Assembly (NCBI GenBank): GCA_031426355.1
Contig: JANPLD010000045.1
Coordinates: forward strand, 11,121-75,120
Source: Alphaproteobacteria bacterium
GTDB taxonomy: Bacteria; Pseudomonadota; Alphaproteobacteria; Rickettsiales; UBA8987
DNA: 64,000 bases
Direction of reading: 5' to 3'
In this document: positions 17,685 to 35,869 of the stretch, in pieces
How the letters are laid out: each line of letters starts with the position of its first letter
Numbering within the stretch: the first letter of the stretch is position 1
Made by a program: the position numbers and the translations under genes
Notes under the pieces: generated by a model
What the model saw: the letters and a program-made list of their open reading frames with translations, nothing else
What the model was told of the DNA's origin: nothing
The model's database searches: none

Positions 17685-17729
17685 TGGTGGGATCGAGAGG
17701 ATTCAAACCTCCGGCCTACGGTTTAGGAA
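17685..17729 (-). mobile_element. Site A: 3' half of tRNA-Arg(CCU), allele with CGATCCC acceptor (attR-like)
   Basis: Minus strand TTCCTAAACCGTAGGCCGGAGGTTTGAATCCTCTCGATCCCACCA; no 5' half upstream. Confidence 0.9.
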
Positions 17730-17850
17730 TTTAGATAATTCATTTATCCTAACCTATCAGGCTTTTGCCTAATCTATCATAAGCAACTGAAATGTAAAAC
17801 CAATCTTTTGCACCAGTTTTCTTCGGTCTTTACCGAGTACCCTGTATAAA

Positions 17851-17902
17851 AGTTACTATACAGTTACTAATGCAAAGTTACTAACCGGAGAAAAGTTACT
17901 AA
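17851..17902. repeat. Four AGTTACTA repeats (arm-type sites of site A)
   Basis: AGTTACTA at 17851, 17862, 17876, 17894. Confidence 0.85.
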
Positions 17903-17940
17903 TTGTACTTATCTACTTACTTTTTAGGCAAATCTTAAGA

Positions 17941-18207
17941 TTAATTTCTAATTCTAGTGTTATCTATTTCTATTGCTTTTGGTCTAAGTGGTTCCTGATA
18001 AGTACCTTCTGCCACTCTTTTTGCTATATCCTTTCCTCTTATTGCAACTTCCTCACTAGTTAAGGATATCTCGGGTGGCTCAATATTTATACCTTTATAA
18101 AAGATTATCTTGAAAGAATATAATTCATAAAATTGAAATAAAGCCTTTAAGTATGCAGGATCTTTTTCTCCGTTAGCATATCCACTTGCTTCTGGCTTTT
18201 CTGGCAT
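17941..18207 (-). CDS. Hypothetical protein, possibly C-terminal fragment
   Basis: 88 aa ORF enclosed by a 42-bp direct repeat. Confidence 0.4.
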   Translation of the reverse strand: MPEKPEASGYANGEKDPAYLKALFQFYELYSFKIIFYKGINIEPPEISLTSEEVAIRGKDIAKRVAEGTYQEPLRPKAIEIDNTRIRN

Positions 18208-18217
18208 AGGAGTTACC

Positions 18218-18259
18218 CAGTTACTAATGTAAAGTTACTAACCGGAGAAAAGTTACTAA
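18218..18259. repeat. Second copy of 42-bp arm repeat (17861-17902), one mismatch
   Basis: CAGTTACTAATG(C/T)AAAGTTACTAACCGGAGAAAAGTTACTAA. Confidence 0.92.
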
Positions 18260-18270
18260 ATACTAATATA

Positions 18271-19293
18271 TTATAATCCCAAGCCATCAGTTAGGTTATT
18301 TATTTTGCCTTTCATAACAGGGCTATATAATTTATTTACCAAAGAAGGTAGTAAAGCGTCATTGGTTACTAACTCAGATAAATTATCTCCATCCTGCTTT
18401 AAGGTATCTAAAATAGTGTTGATATTTTTTGCTATTTCAGGTGTCCAGTTTACTGCAGGATTATCCGTCATAATGCTTGAAAACCCTACTATTTCTTGAT
18501 TCTCTGCTTTAAATCCTTTTAAAAATTTTATTTCTTCAGGAGTTAAGCCTTCATTATCAAAATCTTTTAATTTCTTTATGGTATTAGCGATTTCAGTATA
18601 TTCATCGCAGCTTAGCTGTTTTTTTGGATCTAAAATTGCATTTTCTATTTTGGGTTTACGATCCATATTTTTATAGCCGCCTCTATTCGGCAGCCCTAAT
18701 TCCTTTGCAAAGCCATCGGTAAAATCTGTAACATTTTCTTCAATTCTCTGAAAACTAGCAGTAGTTTCTCTAAGGATTTTTTCCGCACTATCTTTATCAA
18801 CGCTGAACTGCTTTGCGTAGTTTTCATAGTCTCCAAATATGCCGGAAGCATGAGTAAGCTCATGAAAAAAACGCTCTATAGATGGTGAATAACTAACTTC
18901 AGGGTCAGAGGTATTTTGAGCAACCTCCTGATTAAAATTTACTACTACATAACGTATATTTTTGTGTCCAATATCTTGTGGGCGCAAAATTCCTATTCCA
19001 TGCTTTTCAGCTATTTCCTCCCGTGCAAATGGCGTTATTCCAACTGGTATGAAATCAAAGCGGTTCCTTATTTCCGGGCTGGCCTGGACACTTTCATTGA
19101 ATCCAAAAACTTCCAATTTTTCATTCCTGCCTGTACCATCATTAAATAATGCATTGTCCTTAATGTACTTAAATACATCTTGACCTTTATCGCTATTTTC
19201 AATGGTGCATAACCATGCTTCCAAAGCATCTCTTACTTCTGGTATAGCGCAATTTATAGTTATTACATCTTCCCAGTTTATTTTATCCGGCAT
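18271..19293 (-). CDS. Hypothetical protein with HExxH zinc-metallopeptidase motif
   Basis: 340 aa; FFHELTHASG followed by EENVTDFTDGFAKELG. Confidence 0.6.
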   Translation of the reverse strand: MPDKINWEDVITINCAIPEVRDALEAWLCTIENSDKGQDVFKYIKDNALFNDGTGRNEKLEVFGFNESVQASPEIRNRFDFIPVGITPFAREEIAEKHGIGILRPQDIGHKNIRYVVVNFNQEVAQNTSDPEVSYSPSIERFFHELTHASGIFGDYENYAKQFSVDKDSAEKILRETTASFQRIEENVTDFTDGFAKELGLPNRGGYKNMDRKPKIENAILDPKKQLSCDEYTEIANTIKKLKDFDNEGLTPEEIKFLKGFKAENQEIVGFSSIMTDNPAVNWTPEIAKNINTILDTLKQDGDNLSELVTNDALLPSLVNKLYSPVMKGKINNLTDGLGL

Positions 19294-19335
19294 AATTCAA
19301 ATATTATATTGGAATGTAAGTTTACCACAAAAAGG

Positions 19336-19350
19336 TTAATATGCAGTTAA
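19336..19350 (-). promoter_or_regulatory. CtrA-type box TTAA-N7-TTAAC
   Basis: Minus strand TTAActgcataTTAAC, 43 bp upstream of the 340 aa ORF. Confidence 0.5.
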
Positions 19351-19585
19351 TCTTAAGGTTTATTTGTATATGTTATTCAAATTGATCATGCCAATTAGGT
19401 TATAATTTCTTTATTTATCACCACATAGCCTGCTGTATCATAACCCACTGAAACGTAGTAATATTCCCTTGTTTTTGCCTCTGGATGCAATATCTGGTGG
19501 CTATAAGGAATTATTATAAATTATGCCGGTAGCACATATTACAAAGAAGTTTGTTGATGGAATTAAATATCAGGGGAAGCAGGAG

Positions 19586-33991: not shown

Positions 33992-34130
33992 AAGTAAGGC
34001 CTTAGTAAGGCTGCGGTTTAAAAAGGTGCTGGCCTTGTATAAAAAAAGATTTGGAGATTTTTCGGTTTAACTCCGTTTAGAGCTAGAGTTTAAAAAGGCC
34101 ATATAAGCTTTTAAAATCAGAGGCTTGGTT
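33992..34130. repeat. Arm W copy; AGTAAGG pair within 33992-34010
   Basis: Inverted homolog of 27360-27499. Confidence 0.92.
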
Positions 34131-34175
34131 TTCCTAAACCGTAGGCCGGATGTTCGAATCATCTCGTTCCCACCA
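34131..34175 (+). mobile_element. Site F: 3' half of tRNA-Arg(CCU), CGTTCCC allele (attR-like)
   Basis: TTCCTAAACCGTAGGCCGGATGTTCGAATCATCTCGTTCCCACCA. Confidence 0.92.
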
Positions 34176-34195
34176 TTATGATTTTTAAAATAGTA

Positions 34196-35401
34196 TTAAT
34201 TCCTCTGTTTTCCAGGAGTTTTAAGTTTTTCAGCTTCTTTTTGAGCTTGTTCTATTACGTCCGCTTCATATCTGGCCTTTAAAGGAGCAACATCAAGAAA
34301 ATAAAAGATTATATTTTTTTCAATAGAAGCAATTGTCGGTTTATAACCCGATTCCATTGCTACTTTAAACGCGCTAAATTTGAATTGCTCTTGCTCTTCG
34401 CTATTGAATGGTAGTTTTAGTGCTTCTCCTAAATAATATTCTGCTGTTTTGGCACATGCATTTATATGATATGTTAATGGCAAAGTAATTTTATCATCAT
34501 TGAATGCGATAGAGATTCTTCCTGCGGTAATACAATCATAAGGAAATCCGCCTTCAGTGATTTTTCCACCCACCTCTTGGTCTATCATCATAACAGCTAC
34601 CATTGAGTTGTTATCTGCTATTTTAGATTTATATTTCTTGTATGGCTCAGGAAGACTTATGGAATGGTTTGTTGTTTCAATATTTGTGTTACCAAATACT
34701 ATTCCAACATGTACAGGAAGATTCTTTGCATCCATATAGAATTTAAAATTCAGCTTATCACTTGGAAATAGGTCGTTTCCATTTTTATCCTGCGCCTGTA
34801 TAAGAAGCCCTGCATATAAAGAGGCCATAGTATTACAATCAGCAGCTCCTTTATTTTTTTGAGTAGGGTCAGATATACCTTTGTAAAAAGCCGGGTTATT
34901 TGCCACGGTTCTGGTGTGCTCAGACATAAATAAATTTGCTGCAAATAATGATTCCTTCTGCTCTTGGCTTAAACCTTCTAAGCCTTTTCCTGCACTAATT
35001 TTCCATTGGCCATATGATGATTCCTGCTGACCAAATTTTATTTTCTTTTTAGTGTATGTTGCAGGGTCATTACGAACCAAGTTATATTCATCAACCATCT
35101 TATCCCAGTTATCGTAAAAATTTTTTCTTTCTTCAGGAGTATCTAAATTTTCAAAGCCTTTATATTTCCCAGAGTTATAAATTAAAATAGGTACTAACCC
35201 ACCTTCTTTAATAAGGTCACTAACTGCATTCCTGTAATTTAAAAGATCAGCCTTAGTGCCAGACTTAAGATATTCTAAAGCTTGCTCATATTTTTCCTCA
35301 AAATTCTCCGGTGTCTTTAAGATTCTGTTCGTATTAAAAGAAATATCTTGCAAAAGTTCTGGATTTTTCTTTAACAACTCTTGAATTATTTCTTTAGACA
35401 T
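34196..35401 (-). CDS. Hypothetical protein with transglutaminase-like Cys-His core
   Basis: KGAADCNTMASLYAGLL ... PVHVGIVFG...NIETT. Confidence 0.55.
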   Translation of the reverse strand: MSKEIIQELLKKNPELLQDISFNTNRILKTPENFEEKYEQALEYLKSGTKADLLNYRNAVSDLIKEGGLVPILIYNSGKYKGFENLDTPEERKNFYDNWDKMVDEYNLVRNDPATYTKKKIKFGQQESSYGQWKISAGKGLEGLSQEQKESLFAANLFMSEHTRTVANNPAFYKGISDPTQKNKGAADCNTMASLYAGLLIQAQDKNGNDLFPSDKLNFKFYMDAKNLPVHVGIVFGNTNIETTNHSISLPEPYKKYKSKIADNNSMVAVMMIDQEVGGKITEGGFPYDCITAGRISIAFNDDKITLPLTYHINACAKTAEYYLGEALKLPFNSEEQEQFKFSAFKVAMESGYKPTIASIEKNIIFYFLDVAPLKARYEADVIEQAQKEAEKLKTPGKQRN

Positions 35402-35456
35402 AATTTCTGCTTATTCTGATTGGTTTATTACTGCACTATAATGTAACACAAAATCA

Positions 35457-35471
35457 TTAAGAAACTATTAA
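35457..35471. promoter_or_regulatory. CtrA-type box TTAA-N7-TTAA
   Basis: TTAAgaaactaTTAA upstream of the 401 aa ORF. Confidence 0.4.
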
Positions 35472-35526
35472 GATTAACAAAATAATAGGGATAAAGTATG
35501 ATTTTAAATACCGGAAATACACTATA

Positions 35527-35642
35527 AAAGTTACTATAGAGTTACTAATCAAAAAATTGCCTGATTTTGCGATGATGAGATAAGGAATAAGCCCTTATAA
35601 TGATTGAATAATCTAAAAATCTGAACTTTTTGGACTCACTGA
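35527..35642 (-). repeat. Arm X copy; GTTACTA at 35530 and 35541
   Basis: Inverted homolog of 20133-20249. Confidence 0.9.
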
Positions 35643-35681
35643 TTAGGAAACCGACGCTCTATCCAGCTGAGCTACGACCCC
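35643..35681 (-). mobile_element. Site G: 5' half of tRNA-Arg(CCU), GGGGTCG allele (attL-like)
   Basis: Minus strand GGGGTCGTAGCTCAGCTGGATAGAGCGTCGGTTTCCTAA. Confidence 0.92.
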
Positions 35682-35738
35682 AATAGATTTGGATTCGGAA
35701 AATATACTAAACTTTTAAAAATGCAATTCTTTAGAAAA

Positions 35739-35830
35739 CCTTACTATAGCCTTACTTTTGGGTTTTCTGTATTGGATTTAAGGCAGAATAATCAGTAAAT
35801 ACAAATTGTTATAAAATTTCAACCCACTTA
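35739..35830 (-). repeat. Arm Z; CCTTACT at 35739 and 35750
   Basis: CCTTACTATAGCCTTACTT. Confidence 0.75.
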
Positions 35831-35869
35831 TTAGGAAACCGCCACTCTATCCAGCTGAGCTACGCCCCG
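35831..35869 (-). mobile_element. Site H: 5' half of tRNA-Arg(CCU), CGGGGCG allele, next to core gene gpsA
   Basis: Minus strand CGGGGCGTAGCTCAGCTGGATAGAGTGGCGGTTTCCTAA. Confidence 0.9.

Follow-up and report, generated by a model that had tools for sequence, protein, structure and literature searches.

How did an 18-kb segment of a bacterial genome come to hold one complete tRNA-Arg(CCU) gene and six halves of that gene, every one of them broken in the anticodon loop? The segment (positions 17685-35869) is part of the window, by which we mean the whole 64-kb stretch of DNA analysed here (contig JANPLD010000045.1 of assembly GCA_031426355.1), and belongs to a member of the Rickettsiales (Alphaproteobacteria) whose 2.25-Mb metagenome-assembled genome (MAG) comprises 136 contigs and is 98% complete. 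An earlier reading made from the letters alone (hereafter the sequence-only reading) had taken the halves for traces of elements that bring their own tRNA and are nested like Russian dolls. We consider it probable, at roughly 0.8, that this island represents the decayed and scrambled remains of tRNA-replacing mobile elements stacked at tRNA-Arg(CCU).

tRNA genes were called with ARAGORN and Rfam, and partial copies were located by repeat finding and BLAST (E-values of 1e-10 to 1e-18). The copies (Table 1) comprise E, which is the sole complete tRNA-Arg(CCU) in the genome, three 5' halves (C, G and H) and three 3' halves (A, D and F); the acrB operon ends ~90 nt from A at one border of the island, and gpsA lies ~100 nt from H at the other. 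The 7-nt anticodon loop TTCCTAA is the breakpoint of all six halves and is retained in both the 5' and the 3' kinds, and since the two kinds thus overlap by the whole loop, they bear the signature of a site-specific crossover rather than that of a split gene. The identity shared among the 5'-half sites, the 3'-half sites and the full gene is confined to (T)TTCCTAA, i.e., 7-8 nt. ARAGORN and Rfam called none of the six halves, indicating that no tRNA has been rebuilt at the attachment (att) sites of the island.

Every half is joined to an arm that carries a tandem pair of short repeats with an 11-bp period, namely GTAAGGn5GTAAGG (family 1) in the arms of H, D and F, and GTAACn6GTAAC (family 2) in those of C, G and A. 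In C, G and H the arm follows the loop, and in A, D and F it precedes the half. The distance between repeat pair and core is fixed, the P arms lying ~121 nt before the core and the P' arms 75-97 nt after it. Exact repeat pairs were found in the window at the six half-sites only, and BLAST detected the arm sequences nowhere else in the genome. C and G have 156 nt in common at 87% identity, and D and F 199 nt at 90% identity. Tandem arm repeats flanking a core are the arm-type site layout of heterobivalent tyrosine integrases of the lambda and P4 types. The halves can thus be regarded as attL and attR sites of tyrosine-integrase elements with two arm families, in which the tRNA is not rebuilt. 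In particular, C, G and H, where a 5' half is fused to a P' arm, require an attP that shares only the loop with the tRNA, and therefore an integration that destroys the target gene.

Two further observations concern the arms. A 42-nt stretch of the GTAAC arm of A (17861-17902) is repeated with 98% identity at 18218-18259, 357 bp away, and the two copies bracket an 88-amino-acid open reading frame (ORF) on the minus strand (17941-18207); the P arm seems to have undergone a small internal duplication or insertion. Separately, we asked whether a P' arm could be a decayed tRNA 3' half, as in a design derived from the classical one, and rejected this candidate, as the alignment scores at nine sites were no better than those of shuffled sequences (p = 0.06-1.0).

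Of the integrases themselves, the island retains two C-terminal relics that match the integrase of an intact element described below (Table 1), and a family-1 (GTAAGG) arm remnant at 24622-24664 abuts the second of them. A search of 17.6-35.9 kb with PF00589 gave no match.

Table 1. Features of the island (window coordinates) and of tRNA-carrying elements in related genomes (coordinates of their own loci)
Feature	Position	Strand	Description	Evidence
A	17685-17729	-	3' half, allele 2 (A68, G52-C62, T56); core TTCCTAA 17723-17729; attR-type, arm family 2	
P arm family 2 (A)	17730-17910	-	GTAAC repeats; exact pair 17852-17867, 122 nt from core	
PLD-like nuclease C-terminal fragment	19840-20067	+	75 amino acids; ends 26 nt before C; single copy in genome	
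C	20094-20132	+	5' half, allele 2 (T5); attL-type site	
P' arm family 2 (C)	20133-20249	+	exact pair 20230-20245, 97 nt after core; 87% identical to the arm of G	
Integrase relic	22822-23004	-	last 61 codons; 62% identical to residues 331-391 of G017 integrase	tblastn
Integrase relic	24485-24616	-	last 44 codons; 82% identical to residues 348-391 of G017 integrase	tblastn
D	27315-27360	-	3' half, 100% identical to that of E; attR-type site	
P arm family 1 (D)	27361-27513	-	exact pair GTAAGGn5GTAAGG 27481-27497, 121 nt from core; 90% identical to the arm of F	
E	33101-33177	+	complete tRNA-Arg(CCU), allele 1 (A5-T68, T52-A62)	ARAGORN, Rfam 65.7 bits
P arm family 1 (F)	33979-34129	+	exact pair 33994-34010, 120 nt before core	
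F	34130-34175	+	3' half, 100% identical to that of E; attR-type; direct orientation with E, 998 bp away	
P' arm family 2 (G)	35526-35642	-	exact pair 35530-35545, 97 nt after core	
G	35643-35681	-	5' half, allele 2 (T5)	
P' arm family 1 (H)	35682-35830	-	exact pair 35739-35755, 75 nt after core	
H	35831-35868	-	outermost 5' half, degenerate: one acceptor-strand base missing, C25T	
G017 (L031) element, tRNA-Arg(CCU)	6402-15931		9.5 kb; 5' half 6402-6440, tRNA-Arg(CCU) 7701-7777, integrase 11842-13035, 3' half 15887-15931	
G255 element, tRNA-Arg(CCU)			5' half, 108 nt, full tRNA, ~9.7 kb, 3' half	
G375 element, tRNA-Met			5' half, 183 nt, full tRNA, integrase, 3' half	
G240 (L041, G240:C2) element, tRNA-Met	3775-5631		~1.8 kb; 5' half 3775-3814, tRNA 3988-4063, integrase 4340-5401, 3' half 5584-5631	

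The halves belong to co-varying alleles. The compensatory pairs by which the sequence-only reading had set E, D and F apart from C, G and A held at every coordinate and base, and its third 5' variant, H, was likewise recovered, in a degenerate form. H reads C-GGGGCG and is thus one base short; folded with A, the one 3' half tried, it gives a poor acceptor stem, and by sequence its G5 is unpartnered in D or F as well. C and A fold into a perfect cloverleaf, and A has T56 in the T-loop. Both the allele-1 and the allele-2 pair combinations occur in intact tRNAs of other Rickettsiales. All alleles of the window match tRNAs of other families at 69-71 of the 77 positions, as against 61-63 of 77 for the gene of the same genus; these distances agree with a foreign origin of the window tRNAs, albeit 77 nt provide little data.

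We then counted tRNA-Arg(CCU) in 61 related genomes. Each of the 61 has at most one full-length copy, which argues that the extra alleles are not chromosomal paralogs; an origin as ordinary paralogs, which the sequence-only reading had set against element-borne tRNAs, is hence contradicted. Extra halves occur in seven of the 61 genomes, counting the window's own. With three sites each of the attL and attR types and one intact gene, the island amounts to four tRNAs, yet its relatives have no more than one gene; the extra copies must therefore have arrived with the elements. The genome also has two tRNA-Arg(UCU) genes, which might read AGG, and tRNA-Arg(CCU) may consequently be dispensable.

Direct evidence that such elements carry a tRNA comes from other genomes. 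Homologs of the integrase of one relative (G017) were found in 17 of 401 sampled genomes of the order, and a scan of one genome per species across prokaryotes was performed with a three-sequence alignment. Five complete tRNA-carrying elements were found, four in Rickettsiales (G017, G255, G240 and G375) and one, added by the prokaryote-wide scan, in a Kordiimonas chromosome (L063); they target tRNA-Arg(CCU) or tRNA-Met. Partial elements are present at contig ends in two further genomes (G024 and G004), and the prokaryote-wide scan added another partial one in an alphaproteobacterial MAG (L081). The five share a common plan: 5' half, core, P' arm, complete cognate tRNA, cargo, P4-like integrase, P arm, core and 3' half. 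A complete cognate tRNA borne by the element was seen directly in all five, which bears out the proposal of the sequence-only reading that incoming elements carry their own complete tRNA, as each has an integrase, both arms and an internal tRNA of the isotype that it splits. Their integrases combine Arm-DNA-bind_3 and Phage_integrase domains, identical repeat pairs lie in their P and P' arms, and no tRNA is rebuilt at the att sites of L031, L038, L041, L044 or L063 either.

The G017 element is arranged as 5' half with core, P' arm, a DUF2806 gene, an inverted tRNA, a VapE-like primase, HTH_17 (AlpA-like), integrase, Sel1/ankyrin cargo, P arm with core, and 3' half. Its P' arm carries AAAAGTAAGGTAATGGTAAGG, with an identical repeat pair in the P arm, and the identity between the tRNA and the half-sites is confined to ATTCCTAA. 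The integrase (397 amino acids) has Arm-DNA-bind_3, SAM-like and Phage_integrase domains. At the other extreme, the G240 element consists only of a P' arm, a full tRNA-Met, an integrase and a P arm, and each of its two halves matches the full gene at 100% identity. In two elements the carried tRNA points the opposite way to the halves that it replaces, namely that of G017 (L031, G017:C3, 6402-7777), where it lies 1.26 kb from attL, and L077 (9782-15356), where it is tRNA-Ala(GGC). Nested insertion into an inverted carried tRNA would flip the orientation of sites without any inversion event.

The same integrase family is not restricted to this plan. Other homologs lie ~200 nt from 3' halves of tRNA-fMet, Cys, Ile, Lys and Arg(ACG). 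In G177, tRNA-fMet is rebuilt at attL (L091, 10399-10560); the arm pair AGTAAGCGTATAGTAAGC is found ~45 nt downstream of the rebuilt gene and again in the P arm at attR (L039, 10990-11290; G177:C6). Because the far end of this homolog is classical, the classical and the tRNA-carrying modes coexist in one integrase family, as they do in Cluster K mycobacteriophages. In another relative (G027), an orphan tRNA-Arg(CCU) 5' half is followed by a P'-like arm with GGGGCATTTACGGGGCAT (L034, G027:C3, 9363-9500); no tRNA lies within 10 kb of it, and the same contig carries the full gene of that genome at a distance of 130 kb.

The intact elements also give a scale for reading the most telling junction of the island, that between H and G. 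In them, core and carried tRNA are 85-183 nt apart and the tRNA is co-oriented with the split 5' half, the inverted copy of G017 at 1.26 kb being the exception. The first base of G lies 149 nt past the core of H (about 150 bp according to the sequence-only reading), in the same orientation and with the P' arm of H in between. G therefore occupies the slot of a carried tRNA, which marks it as the probable remnant of a tRNA brought by a GTAAGG element, whose attL is H, and later split by a GTAAC element. A second case is provided by G030, in which a 5' half is followed by a 111-nt arm, a 5' half of a different allele, a near-identical arm and then a full tRNA. On the anatomy of these two loci, with G in the carried-tRNA slot and two 5' halves stacked in G030, we regard serial nesting as real. 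Thus, the proposal that a carried tRNA would offer a fresh attB to the next element is backed, at the level of anatomy, by the spacing of H and G and by the stack in G030. For the window itself, the carried tRNA is deduced from the position of G behind the arm of H and from the count of four tRNA equivalents.

The following history would account for the island. At least three elements, probably four, of two related kinds told apart by their arm repeats (GTAAGG and GTAAC), would have integrated here. In each case, a P4-like tyrosine integrase with an arm-binding domain would recombine the 7-8-nt core of attP with the identical anticodon loop of tRNA-Arg(CCU), and because attP shares only the loop with the tRNA, the target would be left as two dead halves, one in attL (5' half and P' arm) and the other in attR (P arm and 3' half). 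Function would be kept by the complete tRNA-Arg(CCU) carried on the element, which in the GTAAGG kind would lie ~60 nt beyond the P' arm repeats. Since the imported tRNA contains the same loop, it could serve as the next attB, and the next element would split it, placing G directly behind the arm of H. E is presumed to be the last imported copy, now the only tRNA-Arg(CCU) of the cell. Later, the integrases would have been lost, leaving the two C-terminal stubs, and deletions together with at least two inversions would have scrambled the order, most simply by crossover between oppositely oriented cores. We infer the order of these events, the expression and sufficiency of E, and the making of the inversions by integrase from the arrangement of the sites.

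Several findings weigh against this history. No intact element was found in the island, and no integrase homolog reaching an E-value of 1e-40 was found anywhere in the genome. An intact element of the GTAAC family was not found in 400 sampled genomes of the order, which gave short chance matches only, and no tRNA follows a P' arm of that family. The empty site was not found either: the tRNA of the same genus has other neighbours, being flanked by a C20-like gene and a 628-amino-acid gene in G001 and G002, the locus of G000 is rearranged, and gpsA-purK are elsewhere. Within the island, the sites read on the minus strand as H>, G>, F<, E<, D>, C<, A>, and are not properly nested, as the candidate pair G..D crosses F..C. 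The arms of the outer pair do not match (family 1 in H, family 2 in A), and the tally of arms is unbalanced (P' arms of families 1, 2 and 2 versus P arms of families 1, 1 and 2). The alleles are likewise incompletely paired, with two T5 5' halves, one A68 3' half and three copies with T68, and H has no clear allele partner. Finally, the contig is metagenome-assembled, and the three identical 46-49-nt 3' halves could in principle have been misjoined to their flanks.

Part of this disorder can be turned into minimum numbers of events. Because inversions conserve the arm tally and the tally is unbalanced, at least one site pair must have been lost, and because, in addition, site pairs cross, no series of inversions alone restores a nested stack. 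From the arrangement of sites, we conclude that the history of the island would include no fewer than three to four integrations, plus at least one loss and two or more inversions. One of the inversions is directly legible, as the cores of C and A need only cross over for a perfectly paired allele-2 tRNA to reappear at the acrB border. The Russian-doll image of the sequence-only reading accordingly stands as far as serial integration is concerned; the island is not a clean doll, since its orientations and arm families are not nested and inversions and deletions are needed to explain them.

Alternatively, the att array could be a living recombination system, a landing pad or shufflon that is still inverted or excised to switch cargo, such as the MHYT phosphorelay genes that lie between D and E, or to restore a tRNA. 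Identical, oppositely oriented cores do flank gene blocks, and a core crossover between C and A would restore a perfectly paired allele-2 tRNA beside the acrB flank together with a GTAAC-type attP. In an independent Logan assembly (run X1), moreover, one contig of depth 3.3, with neighbours of 5.1 and 8.3, links 33100 with 35632 on opposite strands. Nevertheless, this joint lies away from any core and is absent at 97% likeness, at which the region of G is a single full-depth contig with no alternative junction, and tRNA sequence of other organisms swamps the signal there. No cognate recombinase of the kind that a shufflon would require was found in or near the array, the only traces being two stubs of ~50 codons, and the half-sites are in decay, as shown by the missing base of H and by T56 in A. 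We therefore regard a system still at work as unlikely.

A second alternative is that the island was built solely by classical tRNA-restoring islands and that no element ever carried a whole tRNA. E followed, 998 bp on, by a P arm and an identical 3' half (F) looks exactly classical, as does the G177 sibling of the integrase family at tRNA-fMet; indeed, the E-F pair alone would fit the Islander-type pattern, in which the tRNA is regenerated and only a displaced 3' fragment is left, a pattern that the island as a whole does not show. Classical sites are, however, of the kinds (5',3') and (P,3') only, and any crossover among them regenerates just these kinds, never a 5' half joined to a P' arm, of which the island has three (C, G and H). 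The elements in relatives, too, hold a full tRNA between the 5' half and the 3' half. A purely classical origin is thus very improbable.

We give about as little credit to a third alternative, an assembly artefact in which sequences of several organisms or strains in the metagenome were joined into a chimera through the repeated tRNA. The MAG is fragmented into 136 contigs, the tRNA sequence is highly repeated in the sample (depth >1000 over the tRNA body), and the identical 46-49-nt 3' halves are longer than the k-mer length of 31, so that the assignment of flanks to copies rests on the original assembler alone. On the other hand, single contigs of the Logan assembly span three stretches of the island at an even depth of ~8, namely from A through the core of C (16,152 nt), from E to F, and from F through G and H into gpsA. 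This check, made on the only public run with the locus, confirms local junctions in the part that was read (nine tenths), which lies outside 24.8-32.6 kb. The arm pairs and alleles are also internally consistent, and the same architecture occurs in complete chromosomes of other species. Lastly, a Nanoarchaeum-like arrangement of split genes, in which the tRNA halves are separate transcripts that become joined in trans, hardly deserves consideration: the break does fall near position 37/38, the canonical intron and split site, but the host is a Rickettsiales bacterium with an intact gene, the flanks are integrase arms, and the halves share the whole loop instead of abutting and have no complementary leader sequences.

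The principle of the tRNA-replacing element proposed for the island is already published (PMC10865867, PMC11476347), and the island is a clear new example of it. tRNA-dependent lysogeny has been experimentally established in mycobacteriophages (Guerrero-Bustamante & Hatfull, mBio 2024, PMC10865867), including Fionnbharth/K4, Cluster L, Gaia and others. In that system, a tyrosine integrase with arm sites uses a ~10-bp core (8-17 bp) in the anticodon loop, the tRNA is not rebuilt, and the cognate tRNA of the element is required for survival of the lysogen. The elements described here resemble those of actinobacteriophages in their arm-binding tyrosine integrase, paired arm sites, short anticodon-loop core, lack of a rebuilt tRNA and cognate tRNA on the element, as well as in the presence of classical, tRNA-rebuilding members in the same integrase family (here G177). 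In contrast to them, they are not phages but small satellite- or island-like elements (integrase, HTH_17, VapE-like primase and effector-like cargo), one of them of 1.8 kb, their hosts are Alphaproteobacteria (Rickettsiales and Kordiimonas), and the element tRNA lies directly behind the P' arm in most examples. Whereas the carried tRNA is required in the phages, dependence on it is putative here, and tRNA-Arg(CCU) may be dispensable given the presence of tRNA-Arg(UCU). The mycobacteriophage study speculated that a tRNA borne on one plasmid may become the integration site of a second (PMC10865867); here, serial integration into an imported tRNA is seen in nature.

Among alphaproteobacteria, prophages and islands have been surveyed in Sinorhizobium meliloti (Int J Mol Sci 2024, PMC11476347). 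Where integration inactivates a tRNA there, a similar isoacceptor borne by the element is reported to take its place, and this incoming tRNA is closer to genes of unrelated species than to the resident gene. The elements studied here share with those islands an alphaproteobacterial host, the replacement of the tRNA by the element copy and a foreign-like imported tRNA, and differ from them in hosts, target (Arg-CCU) and element type; in the part of the survey considered here, neither stacked arrays of half tRNAs nor the attP-tRNA module appears. With classical islands of P4-type integrases at anticodon loops (Williams 2002; Islander, PMC4383910), they have in common the integrase type, the 7-nt loop crossover, the displaced 3' half by the integrase and tandem accretion. 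The attP of classical islands, unlike that proposed here, includes the tRNA sequence between the loop and the 3' end, so that the gene is regenerated and no orphan 5' halves arise, whereas three orphan 5' halves with P' arms are present in our island. Prophage Lj965 of Lactobacillus johnsonii, in which the tRNA is not rebuilt at the junction and the cognate tRNA is encoded, is a likely non-actinobacterial case as cited in PMC10865867; it differs from the present island in being a single Firmicutes prophage, for which that citation describes no nesting.

What is new here are the hosts (Rickettsiales and Kordiimonas), the small primase-bearing islands down to a 1.8-kb unit of tRNA and integrase, the tight linkage of attP and tRNA, and the natural stacks of halves. 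Replacement of the tRNA by the integrating element thus extends beyond actinobacteriophages to a family of small non-phage elements in Alphaproteobacteria that use several tRNAs. The imported tRNA as the next target is documented in nature, and leaves a dated stack of 5' halves before the live gene. Programs that look for islands by a rebuilt tRNA and a 3' fragment will misplace such borders. A tRNA gene at a site of this kind can be foreign, a point of consequence for tRNA-based phylogeny and for arguments from codon adaptation, and the 1.8-kb module of G240 is a ready-made minimal integration cassette. It is tempting, albeit tentative, to go further and to regard the module of attP, complete tRNA and integrase as a selfish tRNA-replacement unit, which would make itself costly to lose by destroying the resident gene and providing a substitute, renew its landing site and drive horizontal turnover of tRNA alleles across Alphaproteobacteria; leftover orphan cores might then serve incoming integrases in trans, inverting or deleting cargo useful to the host.

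Several other genes of the window deserve mention. The PLD-like fragment, identified from its HxK(x)4D motif alone, is the upstream context of the tRNA that gave C. Between E and F lies an ORF with a TIR domain (PF13676; 33178-33928, minus strand), which appears to be broken into overlapping frames (33368-33928 and 33178-33450) and is the sole remnant of the body of the element whose borders are E and F. A complete phosphorelay, comprising a hybrid kinase (MHYT-GAF-HisKA-HATPase-2xREC), a single-domain response regulator and a probable Hpt protein, occupies 27563-32419 and fits exactly into the interval between the cores of D and E, which face in opposite directions. The genes gpsA-purK (35966-38061), which stand beside H here, are found in G001 and G002 of the same genus (L054 and L056) inside a block matching contig C87 of the present genome, and have thus moved, possibly via rearrangement at att sites. 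Finally, a second island appears to start at tRNA-Glu(UUC) (56918-56992), which is followed by a tyrosine integrase (PF00589 at 57946-58458; tblastn similarity from ~57415) that is ~25% identical to the integrases targeting the Arg and Met tRNAs.

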